Shown here: piece after piece, positions 1-7,507 of the stretch | Layout: each line of letters starts with the position of its first letter | Position numbering within the stretch: position 1 is the stretch's first letter | Source: Rhodothermales bacterium | Lineage (GTDB): Bacteria; Bacteroidota; Rhodothermia; Rhodothermales; VXPQ01 | Length of the DNA stretch: 33,118 nt | NCBI GenBank assembly: GCA_040904565.1 | Contig: JBBDTI010000036.1 | Coordinates: 7,376 to 40,493 of the forward strand | Reading direction: 5' to 3' | Position numbers and translations under genes: made by a program | The notes under the pieces: generated by a model | Told to the model about the DNA's origin: nothing | The model's database searches: none | Seen by the model: the letters and a program-made list of their open reading frames with translations, nothing else

Positions 1-31
1 GAAGTAAACGGACTGCCCGAAGTAAACGGAC
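1..31 (+). repeat. 13-bp direct repeat GAAGTAAACGGAC x2 (1-13, 19-31), probably spanning the stop of the upstream gene
   Basis: Exact repeat seen. AAG-TAA at 2-7 could be the end of infC, which normally precedes rpmI, but that gene is outside the window. Confidence 0.7.
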
Positions 32-145
32 AGCGCGACCGCTTCATATGGAATTCGCCGTTTCCCGCCGCCGCTGCACGCCGGTCAGTTTGCGTTTGCC
101 CTGCGATGGCGCTAGACTCATGAATTAGTCATTCCTTGACAGAGG

Positions 146-177
146 AAGAGGCGCTCCACCGGAACGCCTCTTTTTTT
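146..177 (+). terminator. Intrinsic terminator-like hairpin upstream of rpmI
   Basis: Stem AAGAGGCG(C)TCC / GGA(A)CGCCTCTT with an ACC loop, followed by T7. Confidence 0.7.
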
Positions 178-258
178 GGTCTGTATTAGGAGCCGCAATA
201 CATGGCGGCACGCCAGCCCGCCCTCGCCGGCTATTCGGAAAGGAAAAGATCTACAGTT

Positions 259-453
259 ATGCCCAAGATGAAATCGAATAGCGGCGCCAAGAAGCGCTTC
301 AAGGTGACCGCTAGCGGAAAGATCAAGCGGAGGAAGGCCTACAAGAGCCACATCCTGACCAAGAAGTCGGCCAAGACGAAGCGTAAGCTTCGTAAGGATA
401 CCCTCGTCGACAAGTCGGATGAAGCCCGCATCAAGCAGCTCATCCAGACCTGA
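259..453 (+). CDS. rpmI: 50S ribosomal protein L35
   Basis: [36 protein letters not shown] is the L35 signature. True start is ATG 259, not 202. Confidence 0.98.
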
Positions 454-472
454 TCGGCCAGACCTGATCGGC
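445..472 (+). repeat. Perfect 14-bp tandem duplication CAGACCTGATCGGC x2 spanning the rpmI stop codon
   Basis: 445-458 is identical to 459-472. Confidence 0.9.
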
Positions 473-528
473 GCATCACGCCCGTACCATCCGGCGCTTT
501 CCGCCTGCAGAAACCAGACTGATTCATT

Positions 529-876
529 ATGCCACGCGCTACTAACAAAGTCGCTTCGCGACGCCGCCGCAAGAAACTCATGCAGATGGCCAAGGGCTAT
601 CGCGGCGGACGTTCGAAGATTCACACCGTTGCGAAGCACACGGTCGAGAAGGCCCTGCAGTATGCCTACAGAGACCGCAGGCAGCGGAAGCGGCAGTTCC
701 GCCGTCTGTGGATCACGCGTATCAATGCCGCCGCCCGGCAGAACGGTACGACGTACTCGCAGCTGATGGGCGCACTTCGGAAGCAGGACGTCGAGCTCAA
801 TCGCAAGGTGCTCGCCGAGCTCGCGGTCCACCATCCGGACACGTTCAGCCAGGTCGTGCAGAACGTCACCAAATAG
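529..876 (+). CDS. rplT: 50S ribosomal protein L20
   Basis: MPRA..., [32 protein letters not shown] and [10 protein letters not shown] motifs; follows rpmI. Confidence 0.98.
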
Positions 877-882
877 TTCGTC

Positions 883-936
883 ATGTCGCAGCGACAGACA
901 CAACGATTTTTTTTCCTGCGTCCCTCCTTTCTGTAG
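883..936 (+). CDS. Putative pheST attenuator leader peptide MSQRQTQRFFFLRPSFL (PheM-like)
   Basis: 17-codon ORF with 3 consecutive Phe codons plus a fourth Phe, between rplT and pheS and followed by a terminator. Not in the ORF track. Confidence 0.82.
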   Translation: MSQRQTQRFFFLRPSFL

Positions 937-971
937 CCGGGGGCGTCGCAGGTTGCTGCGCGCGAAGTTAG

Positions 972-1012
972 AATCCCGCCCCTGCAACGACAGGACTGGC
1001 GGGATTTTTTTT
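972..1012 (+). terminator. Attenuator terminator upstream of pheS
   Basis: AATCCCGCC (972-980) pairs with GGCGGGATT (998-1006); inner CCTG/CAGG stem; T8 tail. Confidence 0.85.
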
Positions 1013-1067
1013 ATCTCCATGCTTCGACTGCACCCGTATCGGCCCGGTCCACCATCCCCACGCCAAC

Positions 1068-2066
1068 ATGCTTGAAAACGTCGACGACATCCGGCGAAAG
1101 CTCGAATCCGAGCCCATCGACTCGGAAGAAACCGCCGAGGAATTTCGCATCAAGTACCTCGGGCGGAAAAGTGGACTGATCACGGATCTCTTCAAAGAGA
1201 TTCGCAACGTCGAACCGGCCGACCGGGCTGCCTTCGGTCAGCAGGTGAACGCATTGAAGCAGCTGGCCGAGCAGCGCCTGGAGCATTTCGAGGCGAATCT
1301 CCGGGACGCCGAGACGACGCGGAAGCGGAACGTCGACCTGACGCTTCCCGGCCGCCCCCCGGCCCCGCGCGGATCCATCCACCCGATCACGCAGACGCTC
1401 GAAGACATCAAGCGCGTCTTCGCGCGCTTCGGCTTCGCGGTCGCCGAAGGTCCGGAAATAGAATCGGAGTGGTATAATTTCACGGCGCTCAACTTCCCGC
1501 CCGACCATCCCGCGCGGGACATGCAGGACACGTTTTTCGTCGAGGCGGACCGCGTCGTGCTTCGCACGCATACCTCGCCCGTGCAGATTCGCATTCTGGA
1601 GAAGGAGCCGCCCCCGGTACGGGTGATCGTGCCCGGCCGGGTGTACCGCAACGAGGCCATTTCATACAAGTCGTACTGCCTGTTCCATCAGGTGGAGGGG
1701 CTCTATGTGGATGAGGGCGTTACGTTTGCGGATCTGAAGCACGTGCTGCACGTCTTCGCGCAGGCCCTGTTCGGCTCCGACGTTCGCATGCGCTTTCGTC
1801 CGAGCTTTTTCCCATTCACCGAGCCGAGTGCGGAGGTCGACATCTGGTGGGCCGACGACGCTCTACCCGACGGCGGACGCTGGCTGGAGATTCTCGGGTG
1901 CGGTATGGTCGACCCGAACGTATTCGACTCCGTCGACGTCGACGCCGAACGGTACACGGGGTACGCGTTCGGTATGGGCGTGGAGCGCATCGCGATGCTG
2001 CGGTACGGCATCGACGACATCCGCATTTTTTACGAAAACGATGCCCGTTTCCTCGATCAGTTTTGA
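1068..2066 (+). CDS. pheS: Phenylalanine-tRNA ligase alpha subunit
   Basis: [43 protein letters not shown] and [13 protein letters not shown] motifs. Confidence 0.98.
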
Positions 2067-2101
2067 GGACGCCGGCGATCAGAGATAGCTGTACATAGAT
2101 C

Positions 2102-4573
2102 ATGAAACTATCCTACAACTGGCTCCGACAGTACGCCCCGGTCGACGAGACTCCGGAGGCGCTGGCCGAACGGCTCACGATGGGCGGCCTTGAGGTGGAG
2201 GGAATCGATCGCATCGGCTCGCCGCTCGACGGCGTCGTCGTCGGCCGCGTGGAATCCGTCCGCGCCCATCCCAACGCCGACCGGCTGACCCTCTGCAACG
2301 TCGACCTCGGCGACGGCAGCCCCGTACAGATCGCGTGCGGGGCGCCGAACGTGGAAGCCGGACAGCTCGTCCCGGTGGCCACCGTCGGCACGACGCTGCA
2401 CCTCTCCGACCGCGACGATCCGGATGAGCGGACGCCCGTGTCGATCAAGAAAGCCACGCTCCGGGGCGAAACGTCCGAAGGCATGATCTGCGCGGAGGAC
2501 GAGCTGGGACTCTCAGACGATCATAGCGGCATCATGGTGCTCGGCGAGGACGCGATCGTAGGGCAGCCGTTCGCGGACTACCTCGCGGCACACGGGATCG
2601 ACCCCGCCGATGCCATTCTCGACGTAAGCATCACGCCGAACCGACCGGACGCGGCGAGCCACCTCGGCGTCGCGCGCGACGCCTGCGCGATCACCGGGAC
2701 GCCGCTCGCGCTGCCCGACGTCACGCTGCCGGACGAAGGAGGGGAGGTGTCGGAACGCGTTACGGTCGATATCGAAGCACCGGATGCGTGTCCACGCTAC
2801 GTCGCCCTGCTCGTGCGCGACGTCACCGTCGGAGAGTCTCCGGCGTGGCTGAAGTCCCGCCTTTCCGCGATCGGACTCCGGCCCCGCAACAACGTCGTCG
2901 ATGTGACCAATTTCGTGCTCCACGAGACCGGGCAGCCGCTGCACGCCTTCGATTTCGACGAGATCCGCGGCCACCATATTCGCGTGCGGCAAACGACGGA
3001 CGAGACGGCCTTTACGACGCTCGACGGCAATGAGCGCTCCCTCCCGGCCGGCACGCTGATGATCGCCGACGCCGAACGGGACGTTGCCATGGCGGGCGTG
3101 ATGGGAGGTGAGAATTCGGAGGTCAGCCAGAAAACGACCAACGTACTTCTGGAGAGCGCTTTTTTCGATCCCTCCACGATCCGAAAGGCTGCCAAAACGA
3201 TCGGCGTGCAGACGGACGCGTCCTATCGGTTCGAGCGCGGCGTCGACCGGGACGGGCAGGTGCGCGCAGGGGCCCGCGCGGCGGCGCTCATCGCCGAGCT
3301 CGGCGGCGGCACGCTCGTTCCGGGTATGGTCGACGCCCATCCCACTCCTTTCGAACGAACCACGGTCGACGTCCGACCCGCGCGCGTCGACGCTCTCCTG
3401 GGCACGCACGTGCCGGTCGACGAGGCCGAGCGGCTGCTCGCCTTGATCGGCTTCGACGTCGAGCGCCGCGAGGACGTTCTCCGCTGTACGGTGCCGACCT
3501 ACCGGCCCGACGTCGAGCGCGAGGTCGACGTGATCGAGGAGATCGCGCGCCTGTACGGATACGACAACATCCCCGAGCCGGCCCGGTCCGTCGCCCCGAG
3601 CACCGCGCCGGCGGACCGACCCGAAGACCGGTTTCGGGCGAGCGTACGCGCGCTCCTGAGCAGCCTCGGGTATCGAGAGATCTACACGAACAGCATGCAG
3701 CGCCACGAGACGGCCGAGCGCTTCAACCGGGGCGTGCTCGCCGGAGGGAAAGGGGATGTGGTAGACACCCTCAATCCGATCTCGCGCGAGATGGCCTCGC
3801 TCCGTCCGAGCCTGCTTCCCGGCGCGCTGTCGGTCATGAGTTACAACCGGAATCACGGGCAGCGGCTTCTCCGCTTCTTCGAACTGGGCCACGTGTTTCA
3901 TCGAGGCAGCCGGGACGACGCCGTCGTCGACGGCTACGCGGAGAACGAGACGCTCCTGGTTGCGGCCTCCGGGACGGCCGCTCCGGCCGGTTGGGACACG
4001 GACGATCGATTGATGGACCTGTTCGACCTCAAGGGACTGGTCGCCGCGTTGCTTGACCGCCTCCGGGTACCCGAGGTACGTATGGAAGCCGTCTACGGGT
4101 CGACCGACCTGACCGTGCACCACCTGGACGTATTTTCCGGCGGCGAGCGCCTGGGGGTCGTCGCCCAGTTGGCTGAGGAGTTCGCCGGCGAAAACGACCT
4201 GGACGATCCCGTTCTCTTCTGCGAGCTGGACTGGTCCGCCGTCGTGCGTCTTGCCGCGCCCTTCATCGACGCGACCTACCGCCCGGTCAGCCGCTATCCG
4301 ACCGTTCACCGCGACATTGCCGTAGTGGTCGACCAGTCCAGGGAGGCCGGGGTGTTGATGGACGCCATCCGGCGGTCGGCAGGCGAACTGCTCCTCGAAG
4401 TAGATCTCTTCGATCTCTATCAGGGGGAGCACGTCGACGAAGGCCGCAAGAGCCTCGCCTTCGCCCTGCGCTTCGGGACGAGCCGCACGCTCACCGACGA
4501 GGAGGTCGACGAACGCGTCGACGCCGTCGTACGGACGCTCGAATCGGAGTTCGACGCGCGGCTCAGGTCGTAA
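2102..4573 (+). CDS. pheT: Phenylalanine-tRNA ligase beta subunit
   Basis: HPNADRL, CGAPN, ITPNRPD, ASYRFERGVD, DVIEEIARLYGY and C-terminal FDX-ACB (LFDLYQG..KSLAF). Confidence 0.98.
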   Translation: MKLSYNWLRQYAPVDETPEALAERLTMGGLEVEGIDRIGSPLDGVVVGRVESVRAHPNADRLTLCNVDLGDGSPVQIACGAPNVEAGQLVPVATVGTTLHLSDRDDPDERTPVSIKKATLRGETSEGMICAEDELGLSDDHSGIMVLGEDAIVGQPFADYLAAHGIDPADAILDVSITPNRPDAASHLGVARDACAITGTPLALPDVTLPDEGGEVSERVTVDIEAPDACPRYVALLVRDVTVGESPAWLKSRLSAIGLRPRNNVVDVTNFVLHETGQPLHAFDFDEIRGHHIRVRQTTDETAFTTLDGNERSLPAGTLMIADAERDVAMAGVMGGENSEVSQKTTNVLLESAFFDPSTIRKAAKTIGVQTDASYRFERGVDRDGQVRAGARAAALIAELGGGTLVPGMVDAHPTPFERTTVDVRPARVDALLGTHVPVDEAERLLALIGFDVERREDVLRCTVPTYRPDVEREVDVIEEIARLYGYDNIPEPARSVAPSTAPADRPEDRFRASVRALLSSLGYREIYTNSMQRHETAERFNRGVLAGGKGDVVDTLNPISREMASLRPSLLPGALSVMSYNRNHGQRLLRFFELGHVFHRGSRDDAVVDGYAENETLLVAASGTAAPAGWDTDDRLMDLFDLKGLVAALLDRLRVPEVRMEAVYGSTDLTVHHLDVFSGGERLGVVAQLAEEFAGENDLDDPVLFCELDWSAVVRLAAPFIDATYRPVSRYPTVHRDIAVVVDQSREAGVLMDAIRRSAGELLLEVDLFDLYQGEHVDEGRKSLAFALRFGTSRTLTDEEVDERVDAVVRTLESEFDARLRS

Positions 4574-4748
4574 CAGGAAGGTCACGCGCTGCATCGGCAG
4601 GAGAACGTATCGCCTGTGCGGCGCGTGCCGGATGCATCCCGGAGACCTGTGTCTGATCGACGGGAAAATCCGCGGGGGAGCTGAACTTCTGCGGGAGATG
4701 TGTATATTCACTTAAAGTGTTACTCTAGCAGGAAGCCTCGATACCTTG

Positions 4749-5087
4749 ATGGCAGAGCAATCGGAGCCCCCCGAAATCGATCGGGAACGGGAATCCGGAG
4801 ACGAGACCTCCGAGGCCGGTACGTCGGAACGGGTCAGCCTGAAAGGCATGGCCTCTCTCGAGCGGCTGCGGGACCGCGTCGAGGCGGCCGCGAGTGAGAT
4901 GGAACGCCTGCGGGAAGAGAACGAAACGCTTCTTCAGCGCGTCAAGAAGCTCGAGACCCGTCCGGACGTCGATCCGCGGGGGACCTTTCTGTCCCTCGAT
5001 CACGATCCGGAGGAGCTCAAGCGCAAGATTGCCTCCTTCATCGATGCCATCGACAGTTATCTCGAGAAGGAACGCAGCGGTACCTGA
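4749..5087 (+). CDS. Small coiled-coil protein, positional ZapB-like
   Basis: Heptad-rich LERLRDRVEAAASEMERLREENETLLQRVKKL and C-terminal LKRKIASFIDAIDSYL; lies between pheT and zapA. Confidence 0.65.
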   Translation: MAEQSEPPEIDRERESGDETSEAGTSERVSLKGMASLERLRDRVEAAASEMERLREENETLLQRVKKLETRPDVDPRGTFLSLDHDPEELKRKIASFIDAIDSYLEKERSGT

Positions 5088-5116
5088 TTCTTCGGCCATC
5101 AGCACGATTCACACGC

Positions 5117-5416
5117 ATGTCCGCCACCACGCATTCCATCCGCGTTCGCATTCTGAATCGGGACTTTTCCCTCCGCGTCAGCGAGAAAGACGAGGACCTT
5201 ACGAGGGATCTCGCGCGGTACGTGAACGACAAAATGCAGGATTTCCTGCGCAAGCACCCGGACCAGCCGGAGATTACGGCGTCCATCATCGGTGCGATGG
5301 CCATCGCGGAGGAGCTGTTCACGGAGCGGGAGGAACGCGAACGCCTGGAATCACAGCTTGAAGAAGCGTTCGAAACCATGTCGAACCGGCTCGAACAGGC
5401 ATCTAAGGCTGCGTAG
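5117..5416 (+). CDS. zapA: Cell division protein ZapA
   Basis: SIRVRILNRDFSL...ARYVNDKM...AMAIAEEL followed by a coiled coil; pheT-zapA-6S-rny context. Confidence 0.88.
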   Translation: MSATTHSIRVRILNRDFSLRVSEKDEDLTRDLARYVNDKMQDFLRKHPDQPEITASIIGAMAIAEELFTEREERERLESQLEEAFETMSNRLEQASKAA

Positions 5417-5539
5417 CCCGTCTCGTTTTGACGCACGTCTGTCTTGACCGGTGAAGGTCGGTTTTCTTAAATAGACCTTCGAGGAACAGGTCAAACCGTA
5501 CCCTATTAAAGGGCGTGCTTGCCTTGAGAGGGGCAGGCC

Positions 5540-5730
5540 CGCGATACCGTTTGCGGATGCATAAAAGAACCTGACAACTACGTTAAAGGGAGCCGGTCTT
5601 CACGCTTGGACGGCAGGCCCAGCCTCGCTTCGCGGGGTCCTCTCTTCGGAGGGGCAGGGACGATCGGAAGAGGGTGAGTGGCTCCCACATTGGATGAAAG
5701 AGGTTCTTCTATCCACCGCTCGGAATCGCG
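5540..5730 (+). ncRNA. ssrS: 6S RNA (boundaries approximate)
   Basis: Rod structure: CGCGAT/ATCGCG closing stem, AAGAACCT (5565-72) with AGGTTCTT (5701-08), central A-rich bubble, GGGAGCC (5588-94) with GGCTCCC (5680-86). About 190 nt, in the typical position downstream of zapA. Confidence 0.82.
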
Positions 5731-5740
5731 TGTTTAAGGA

Positions 5741-5799
5741 AACGCCCCGGTGTCGGATACGGTTTGATAGACCTGCACGCACCGGGGCGTTCTTTTTTT
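5741..5799 (+). terminator. Terminator after 6S RNA
   Basis: AACGCCCCGGTG (5741-52) pairs with CACCGGGGCGTT (5780-91), followed by CT7. Confidence 0.8.
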
Positions 5800-5815
5800 A
5801 TAAGGGGATAATCCT

Positions 5816-7507
5816 ATGATTACGGTCGAACTGGCTGTCGCCATCGCCGTGGTCGCGCTTGGCATCGGCATTGCCGTAGATAAATTTCTTCTCTCTCGGT
5901 CCGGGCGAAACCGCCTGAGCGCGGCCGAGAAGGAGGCGGAGGCCATCCTCGAACAGGCTCGGAAAGAAGCGGAGGCGCTTCGGGACGACCGGTTGGAGGA
6001 GGCACAGCAGGAACTAGCTCGTTCTCAAGAGGCCGCCGTCAATCTACAGGAGGAATCCAAGCGTGCCCTTCGACAGACGCGGCAGAAGCTGGAGAAGCAC
6101 AGAGACAAACTGAATCGTCGGACGCAGCGCGTCAACGAGCGCGAACGGCTTCTACACAAGGGATCCGAGGCCATCGACGTGATCCGCAAGGAGGCCGAGC
6201 AGCATCGTCGCGACGCCGAGATGCTGCGTTCGAACGTGACTGCGCTTCTCGACGAAGCCCAATCGCGCGTGGAGGCACTGGAGCGGCGTGAGCACGAACT
6301 GAACGAACGGCTCGAGGAGGTTCAGTCCAGGCGCCGCGAGCTCGATCAGATGATCGACGAGCAGATCCGCAGGCTCGAACAGGTGTCGGGCATGACGGAG
6401 CGAGAGGCGCGCGAGGCCATCCTCGATCAATTCCTGGAAGAGGTCAAGCTGGAATCGGCCTCCCAGGTGAAAGAGATCCGCGACGAGGCGAAGCTTAAAG
6501 CCAACCGGGAAGCCCGCAAGATCATCCTCACGGCCATTCAACGTACGGCGGCAAGCCATGCGATCGAGAACACCGTATCGGTCGTCAACATCGAGTCCGA
6601 CGAGATGAAGGGCCGCATCATCGGTCGGGAAGGGCGCAATATCCGGGCGTTCGAGGCGGAGACGGGGATCGAAGTCATTATCGACGACACGCCGGAGGCC
6701 GTCATCCTCTCCGGTTTCGACCCGGTCCGCAGGGAGATCGCCCGGCTCGCCCTCATCAAGCTCGTGCAGGACGGACGCATCCACCCGGCACGGATCGAGG
6801 AGATCGTCGAACAGGTGCGCGGCGACATCGAAGAGGAGATCGTCGAGATCGGAGAGCGCACCGTGATCGATCTCAATCTGCACGGGTTACACGACGAGCT
6901 CGTTCGAATGGTCGGGCGCATGCGTTATCGGACGAGCTACGGGCAGAACCTGCTCGGACACTCTATCGAGACGGCACACATCGCCTCGCTGATCGCAGCC
7001 GAGCTGGGCCTCGACGCGGCCAAGGCGCGCCGGGCGGGCCTCCTCCACGACATCGGAAAGGTCGTGGAGGAAGATATCGAGAACCCGCACGCCATCGTAG
7101 GCATGGAACTCTGCCGCAAGTTCGGGGAGGATGAAATCGTGTGCAACGCCGTCGGCGCCCATCACGACGAGATCGAGATGACGTCCTTCATCGCGCCCAT
7201 CGTGCAGGCCGCCGACGCCGTCTCCGGGGCTCGTCCGGGAGCCCGACGGGAGGCCCTCGAGGCCTACATCAAGCGTCTCGAGAAGCTCGAAGACCTGGCC
7301 GCCTCCTTCGACGGTGTCGCACAGGTTTACGCGATCCAGGCGGGCCGCGAGATCCGCGTGCTGGTGAATCACGAGCTGGTGTCGGACGCTCAGGCGGAGC
7401 AGCTGGCCGCGGACATTTCGAAACAGATCCAGCACGACATGCAGTATCCCGGCCAGGTCAAGGTCACGGTGATCCGCGAGGTTCGGTCCGTGTCCTACGC
7501 GAAATAG
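5816..7507 (+). CDS. rny: Ribonuclease Y
   Basis: N-terminal TM helix, long coiled coil, KH domain ([14 protein letters not shown]), HD domain (LLHDIGK, HHDE), C-terminal [11 protein letters not shown] and [12 protein letters not shown]. Confidence 0.97.

Follow-up and report, generated by a model that had tools for sequence, protein, structure and literature searches.

The 191 nt that separate rplT from pheS in a Rhodothermales genome raise the question of whether the terminator found there is the plain end of a ribosomal protein operon or part of a device that adjusts the synthesis of phenylalanine-tRNA ligase to the supply of phenylalanine. The initial annotation of the window, the whole stretch of 33,118 nucleotides analyzed here, opted for a ribosome-stalling attenuator comprising a short open reading frame (sORF), an antiterminator and a terminator, a reading which is supported by the conserved sORF and the covarying stems but which lacked one essential part, the hairpin referred to below as hairpin 1:2. 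We consider the element to be a Phe-sensing, ribosome-mediated (leader-peptide) transcription attenuator of pheST, with a probability of about 80%. The parts exist and are conserved, and hairpin 1:2 covaries; from this anatomy and conservation we infer the translation of the leader, the stalling at its Phe codons, the kinetic competition between the hairpins and the response to phenylalanine.

The element is flanked by genes assigned with protein family models, and its features are collected in Table 1. The rplT stop codon TAG occupies positions 874-876, and the leader ATG lies 6 nt further on, at position 883. Rfam returned zero matches at gathering score in the whole window, and only sub-threshold chance matches (anti-hemB, 24.3 bits; ASdes, 20.5 bits) at E up to 1 in window positions 1-6000; the whole window contains no tRNA genes. 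Other features of the window include (i) a 13-nt direct repeat, GAAGTAAACGGAC, present twice at its start (1-13 and 20-32); (ii) a GC-rich hairpin followed by a seven-T run at 148-178, ca. 80 nt upstream of rpmI, which could either terminate the gene before it or belong to the leader of rpmI-rplT, and for which Rfam gives no match, L20_leader included; and (iii) a weak ZapA-like ORF at 5117-5416 (26.7 bits, under the 80-bit cutoff), followed downstream by RNase Y at 5816-7507 (646.6 bits), with a 400-nt spacer between them that has no Rfam match.

Table 1. Genes and proposed regulatory parts of the rplT-pheS region, in window coordinates
Feature	Position	Strand	Basis
rpmI	259-453	+	NCBIfam equivalog model
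rplT (ribosomal protein L20)	529-876	+	NCBIfam TIGR01032 rplT_bact, 150 bits versus a cutoff of 65.65
Leader ORF, 17 codons, MSQRQTQRFFFLRPSFL and stop	883-936	+	ORF list, translation
Regulatory codons CGA TTT TTT TTC (Arg-Phe-Phe-Phe), proposed stall site	904-915	+	read from sequence
Segment 1, 5' strand of the predicted anti-antiterminator hairpin, within the leader ORF	915-927	+	MFE folds
Segment 2, G-rich 3' strand of hairpin 1:2, alternatively the predicted antiterminator strand	939-952	+	folds, conserved GGGGCG core, cross-partner test
Small internal hairpin CGCAG/CUGCG (947-951:956-960) plus CGC (961-963)	947-963	+	fold of 929-990, antiterminator state only
Intrinsic terminator	970-1012	+	fold of 968-1014
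Segment 3, terminator 5' arm, core CCCGCCCCUG	973-984	+	fold
Terminator loop	985-990	+	fold
Segment 4, terminator 3' arm, with a 3-nt bulge at 995-997	991-1005	+	fold
U tract	1005-1012	+	fold
pheS (phenylalanine-tRNA ligase alpha subunit), proposed regulated gene	1068-2066	+	TIGR00468, 314.6 bits versus a cutoff of 237.45
pheT (beta subunit), 3' of pheS, same direction	2102-4573	+	TIGR00472 pheT_bact, 777.8 bits

Translation confirms the sORF with four Phe codons described in the initial annotation, the codons being TTT TTT TTC at 907-915 and TTT at 928-930, ahead of the stop codon TAG at 934-936. The 4.02 Mb genome was scanned by script for short ORFs in which two or more consecutive Phe codons are preceded by an ATG at a distance of 2-14 codons and followed by a stop no more than 14 codons on, with a strong terminator not farther than 120 nt away. 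This leader was the single match, and thus no second Phe leader elsewhere in the genome, e.g., before pheA. The reading frame was further analyzed with a control free of any selection for Phe, comprising the 45 unique sequences of the 46 top-ranked matches (at least 44.3 bits) to a covariance model of the element, R1. An ATG 4-11 codons upstream together with a first stop 6-16 codons downstream occurs in the Phe frame in 37 of the 45 sequences, whereas the two alternative frames give 1 and 2. The ORF is, judging from these sequences, under coding-frame constraint, and its translation is presumed.

The comparison of relatives discloses which properties of the leader are preserved. An sORF of the form M-x6-8-R-F-F-x-stop is present in 16 of the 30 nearest-relative loci, and the 47 unique leaders start with ATG (45) or GTG (2), most of them carrying 7-9 codons ahead of the Phe run (39/47) and 5-9 codons past it (35/47). 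The residues that precede the Phe run are free to vary across families while their number is kept, and Arg-Phe-Phe are the sole conserved residues of the peptide. Most leaders display two adjacent Phe codons; where the arginine is lost the Phe run is still present (SFFF, PFFF, TFFF), and a single Phe (RFM, RFI or RFS) is seen in 8 of 109 genomes. The codon choice is marked: the Phe runs of the 47 unique leaders contain 76 TTT versus 23 TTC, and the codon before the run is CGA in 36 of them, while in the window's own genome, the only one for which usage was counted, TTT accounts for 25.7% of Phe codons and CGA for 14.7% of Arg codons. In 17 of 48 leaders the start codon shares bases with the rplT stop (ATGA or TAATG), and in 11 more it follows that stop by 0-10 nt; because of this overlapping or abutting arrangement the sequences suggest that the leader is initiated by coupling to rplT translation. 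Bacteroidota largely do without Shine-Dalgarno-led initiation, and since no Shine-Dalgarno-like sequence was seen ahead of the leader ATG, initiation at this codon is putative.

Downstream of the leader, the strong terminator previously placed at 972-1012 was recovered with nearly the same limits. The hairpin extends over 970-1008 around a GC core at 974-1004, with the eight-U run overlapping its end, and the fold of window positions 968-1014 reaches -22.0 kcal/mol (z -5.72; 0/200 shuffles as good). The structure is conserved in relatives, in which it is predicted to terminate transcription, and its core is nearly invariant, with four pairs identical in 74 of 74 aligned rows. Upstream of it, a second hairpin, 915-927:939-952, connects the leader ORF to the G-rich stretch that follows the stop codon (-19.1 kcal/mol, z -3.19; 0/200 shuffles as good), the final nucleotide of the third Phe codon being the first of its segment 1. 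In the folding model, this hairpin 1:2 is the anti-antiterminator of a four-segment design: because it shares segment 2 with the proposed antiterminator, the predicted layout is that of a full four-segment attenuator. The geometry is preserved in relatives: 43 of 47 leaders have the first paired base of helix 1:2 no more than 2 nt to either side of the point where the last Phe codon ends, and 44 of 47 have the stop codon in the loop (31) or the 3' strand (13) of this hairpin.

RNAalifold applied to plain MAFFT alignments recovered the terminator only, because the middle part of the element was misaligned; a well-aligned subset and a covariance model were therefore used. In the subset, the MAFFT alignment A3 of 17 sequences, hairpin 1:2 is paired in 83.6% of cases and 4 of its 13 pairs changed on both sides, with slid controls, computed for the whole scored structure (hairpin 1:2 plus terminator), at 38-44%. 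In the covariance model alignment A4, with 74 distinct rows and a bias towards the structure of R1, to which it was fitted, 82.6% of the cells of hairpin 1:2 are paired (whole-structure slid controls, 37-47%) and 0/500 shuffles reach the score. The two signs of conservation that the initial annotation had looked to in relatives are thus both present: the position, frame and length of the Phe-containing sORF are kept across many Rhodothermales families, and the stems covary, with compensatory changes in 13 of 13 pairs of hairpin 1:2 in A4 and a preference for native partners.

This preference was quantified by exchanging the partner strands between families. For pairing 1:2, native partners give -16.8 versus -13.4 kcal/mol for cross-family partners, the native being better in 15 of 16 families; for pairing 2:3, the values are -22.3 versus -19.9 kcal/mol and 14 of 16 families. 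In both cases 0/5000 permutations were as low, figures that overstate the significance because related genomes are non-independent. Both alternative pairings are, on this comparison of predicted energies, co-evolving with their own partners.

The positions given in the initial annotation for the proposed antiterminator are right except for one. Segment GGGGCGTCGCAGG is at 940-952 and CCTGCAACG at 981-989, as described, whereas CGCCCC lies at 977-982 and not at 976-981. The predicted pairs in the window connect 938-942 with 974-978 and 932-936 with 982-986. When segment 1 is masked, the mask covering the ORF up to 13 nt beyond the point where the second Phe codon begins, and the 3' arm of the terminator is absent, segment 2 is predicted to pair with the terminator 5' arm in 21 of 21 sequences, and the stop-codon region often joins segment 2 in pairing this arm and the loop. 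With segment 1 masked in the full RNA, the terminator is still the minimum free energy (MFE) structure in 13 of 21 sequences, and the switch to read-through must therefore be kinetic. The support from native partners and masked folds is set against two results: the antiterminator segment 929-990 (-23.0 kcal/mol, z -0.62) is unexceptional for its composition, with 48/200 shuffles as good, and its columns, although 74.4% paired versus 40-64% when slid, covary weakly (20/500 shuffles reach the covariation score), because the core pairs are nearly invariant. In addition, a CUGCGCGC-like motif (window 953-964) occurs in six of the seven leader-bearing genomes of the window's own family (L001-L007), the seventh, L007, having CCGCGCGC; once segment 1 is occupied, this motif is predicted to be able to pair with CGCAG of segment 2. 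It was also considered whether CGAUUUUUU pairs with the A-rich sequence that flanks the terminator on its 5' side, an idea that was dropped because no fold predicted such a pairing.

These parts can be assembled into a mechanism in which transcripts running through rpmI-rplT would continue into the 17-codon leader ORF. If charged tRNA-Phe were plentiful, the ribosome would reach the stop codon, which lies in the loop of hairpin 1:2 beside segment 2, and segment 2 would be either covered or, after release of the ribosome, re-paired with segment 1. With segment 2 unavailable, the terminator would form and transcription would end ahead of pheS. If charged tRNA-Phe were scarce, the ribosome would stall at 907-915 and cover segment 1, so that the freed segment 2 and the stop-codon region could capture the 5' arm and loop of the terminator (974-986) before its 3' arm is made; with the terminator blocked, RNA polymerase would continue into pheS-pheT and expression of the synthetase would rise. 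With zero translation, hairpins 1:2 and 3:4 would both form, as they do in the full-length MFE structure.

The distribution of the element was addressed at two levels. A search for the exact pattern (codons for Arg-Phe-Phe, then a spacer, then the core of the terminator) in one genome each of 185,579 species gave 18 matches, of which 14 lie between rplT and pheS; 13 of these loci hold both genes, and in the remaining one, L046, the locus is cut and L20 alone is visible. All 14 are MAGs, 12 of them titled Rhodothermales, Rhodothermaceae or Rhodothermia, one "Bacteroidetes bacterium" and one "uncultured bacterium", in line with the non-proteobacterial lineage surmised beforehand, which is Rhodothermales, Bacteroidota. 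The other four matches, two Megasphaera among them, are without rplT or pheS and without a proper sORF, and were discarded as chance. A loose pattern run across the order produced many chance matches in GC-rich genomes, at a rate similar to that of a reversed-pattern control, and served to retrieve loci and not to count them.

Within the order, for which the searched collection contains 285 genomes in 27 families, R1, built from 17 sequences, was run on 151 evenly drawn genomes, and found exactly one copy in each of 58 genomes from 19 of the 27 families (51 of 123 among good-quality genomes), every match compared being directly upstream of pheS. In family f3, the complete genomes carry it without exception (7/7). 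The remaining 93 of the 151 sampled genomes give no R1 match, and because it is not found in most sampled genomes of the order the element is dispensable. A script sorted the rplT-pheS spacers of 109 genomes, a sample enriched by 30 loci that the pattern search had supplied, 58/151 being the less biased figure, into (i) an sORF with FF or FxF and a terminator 15-65 nt past its stop (48 genomes, 16 families); (ii) an sORF that contains one Arg-Phe and is followed by a terminator (8 genomes); (iii) a terminator only (33 genomes); (iv) a short gap of <40 nt (12 genomes); and (v) spacers in which the script found no terminator (8 genomes). R1 has no match in the sampled genomes of g8 (0/11), a genus from the same family as the window; in 12 of 12 genomes of this genus (L009-L018, L020, L024), rplT and pheS are 5-18 nt apart, without leader or terminator, which on gene spacing marks a clean loss of the attenuator inside the family. 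Matches are likewise absent from the sampled members of f10 (0/13), f19 (0/10), f26 (0/5) and f4 (0/3); the fetched loci of the first three families usually carry a plain terminator after rplT, and in those of f4 rplT is not upstream of pheS.

Beyond the order, the RFF element was found neither in 16 genomes of sister orders of the class nor in 18 loci taken from the phylum's other classes. Some individual loci display arrangements of their own. L146 and L147, from family f29 of a sister order, have very short frames with two Phe codons each (MFLFSIM and MYFVFDDTGKLN, both followed by a stop) between rplT and a plain terminator; no alternative pairing was seen in these two loci, and it is doubtful that the frames are Phe leaders. 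In L180 (G328, from another class of the phylum), the first 70 nt after rplT hold a Phe-rich frame that continues from the 3' end of rplT and closes with IFGFADFYVSFIGL and a stop codon within the 5' arm of a terminator-like hairpin; it may represent an independent Phe leader of different design. Inside Rhodothermales, the attenuator is intact but the rplT-pheS gap extends to 877 nt in L068 (G135) and 556 nt in L076 (G139), and in L068, where a tandem repeat of the GGGTCTTG type is present, an ORF of ca. 120 codons is inserted past the terminator.

Could the terminator simply close the rpmI-rplT operon, with pheST transcribed from its own promoter and the sORF a chance frame? A plain terminator after rplT is common, since a terminator without an sORF stands right after rplT in 33 of 109 Rhodothermales genomes, in the 16 sister-order genomes and in ca. 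8 of 18 loci of other classes of the phylum, and E. coli likewise has a terminator-like hairpin directly after rplT. For the loci that carry the leader, however, this account is highly improbable. A chance frame is at odds with the frame control (37/45 versus 1 and 2), with the conserved number of codons before the Phe run and with the overlap of leader start and rplT stop in 17 of 48 leaders; the covariation of hairpin 1:2, its anchoring at the Phe codons and the preference for native partners would be left unexplained; and a scan for promoters of the sigma-70 type, the one type covered, gave no promoter-like site between the terminator and pheS.

A different possibility is that the hairpins are switched by a trans factor, i.e., L20, PheRS or, in a T-box-like manner, uncharged tRNA-Phe, the sORF serving translational coupling only. 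The near-invariance of CGAUUUUUU, GGGGCG and CCCGCCCCUG goes beyond what a hairpin needs and could mark a binding site, and pheS of Firmicutes is under T-box control (PMC5314783). The conservation of GGGGCG and CGCCCC is nevertheless accounted for by their mutual complementarity, and no Rfam family is matched, neither T-box nor L20_leader being found with E relaxed to 1. Along with an element of only ca. 110 nt, Phe codons that alternate between TTT and TTC, and a Phe run kept where the arginine is lost, this makes switching by a trans factor very unlikely. Nor is much probability left for an attenuator that is coupled to translation but senses ribosome traffic in general, or the translation of rplT, and not the Phe supply specifically: 28 of 48 leaders have a start that overlaps the rplT stop or lies close behind it and eight genomes have one Phe codon, as such a device would allow, but the peptide conserves Arg-Phe-Phe alone, the controlled gene is that of the Phe-tRNA ligase, and the geometry puts the implied stall site exactly on the Phe run. 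We therefore retain the Phe-sensing leader-peptide attenuator as the reading of the element.

A more specific version of the Phe-sensing attenuator, which we regard as unlikely though worth stating, is that of a sensitized two-codon device, composed of CGA and the rarer UUU and read by a ribosome that has just finished rplT. In this version, CGA in the P site, with its I:A wobble pair, would slow A-site decoding of Phe, so that two Phe codons would be enough, and the ATGA/TAATG overlap would deliver the sensing ribosome by termination-reinitiation; if true, PheRS synthesis would be wired to L20 translation.

The mechanism itself is textbook, and the gain is therefore one of breadth and not of principle: leader-peptide attenuation of an aminoacyl-tRNA synthetase operon would be extended to a deep branch of Bacteroidota, a phylum in which, to our knowledge, few attenuators have been described. 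Noteworthy are the lineage, the way in which the leader is tied to the rplT stop, and the conserved choice of the codons CGA-UUU-UUU. The element, in part conserved in sequence (CGA-UUU-UUU, GGGGCG, CCCGCCCCUG) and in part covarying, is well defined, occurs across the order in a single copy per positive genome and is a candidate for a new curated RNA family that would help genome annotation; a seed alignment and a model have been built for it. It also offers a natural system for the minimum number of regulatory codons and for the initiation of a leader ORF by coupling to the preceding gene.

Among the known systems, the proteobacterial attenuators of the pheL (the pheA leader) and trpL type share with the Rhodothermales element the cognate codons and, as predicted for the latter, the alternative hairpins 1:2, 2:3 and 3:4, and trpL likewise has only two regulatory codons; they differ in serving biosynthetic operons from a dedicated promoter. 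The T-box of Firmicutes pheS is a terminator/antiterminator switch that responds to tRNA-Phe charging (PMC5314783). Compared to the Rhodothermales element, it senses uncharged tRNA directly, is free of an ORF and is much longer; the T-box model RF00230 has no match at E up to 1 in window positions 1-6000 nor at gathering score in the whole window. In the same phylum, leader-peptide attenuation has been proposed for Flavobacterium psychrophilum from structured 5' regions before amino-acid biosynthesis operons (PMC9723704), a mechanism of the same kind, with pheS and pheT absent from the main text of that article (PMC9723704). Attenuation of pheST is cited for gamma-proteobacteria in PMC1262725. 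A search of the full-text literature, with supplements and subscription papers outside its scope, found no description of a pheST attenuator in Rhodothermales or Bacteroidota in the accessible texts (including PMC4833913, PMC1262725, PMC2965389, PMC5314783, PMC9723704 and PMC7366714), in agreement with the initial annotation, which knew of none for the lineage.

The closest counterpart is the pheM/pheST-ihfA attenuator of E. coli (RF01859), which, as stated in the initial annotation and verified here, occupies the same position between rplT and pheS, with an R-F-F-F ORF followed by an intrinsic terminator. The Phe_leader model RF01859 (gathering score, 55 bits) scores E. coli pheM at 75 bits as a positive control, and gives no match to the window at E up to 1 and none to L029, L030 and L142 at gathering score; the element is thus predicted to work like pheM but without detectable homology to Phe_leader. 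The two leaders are also built differently: pheM has 14 codons with 5 Phe and lies 122 nt after rplT, behind the terminator-like hairpin, whereas the Rhodothermales leader starts 6 nt past the rplT stop, overlapping it in many relatives, and usually carries 2-3 adjacent Phe codons after CGA. Besides these differences, the E. coli element and, as proposed, the Rhodothermales element have the same controlled genes and the same four-segment logic in common.
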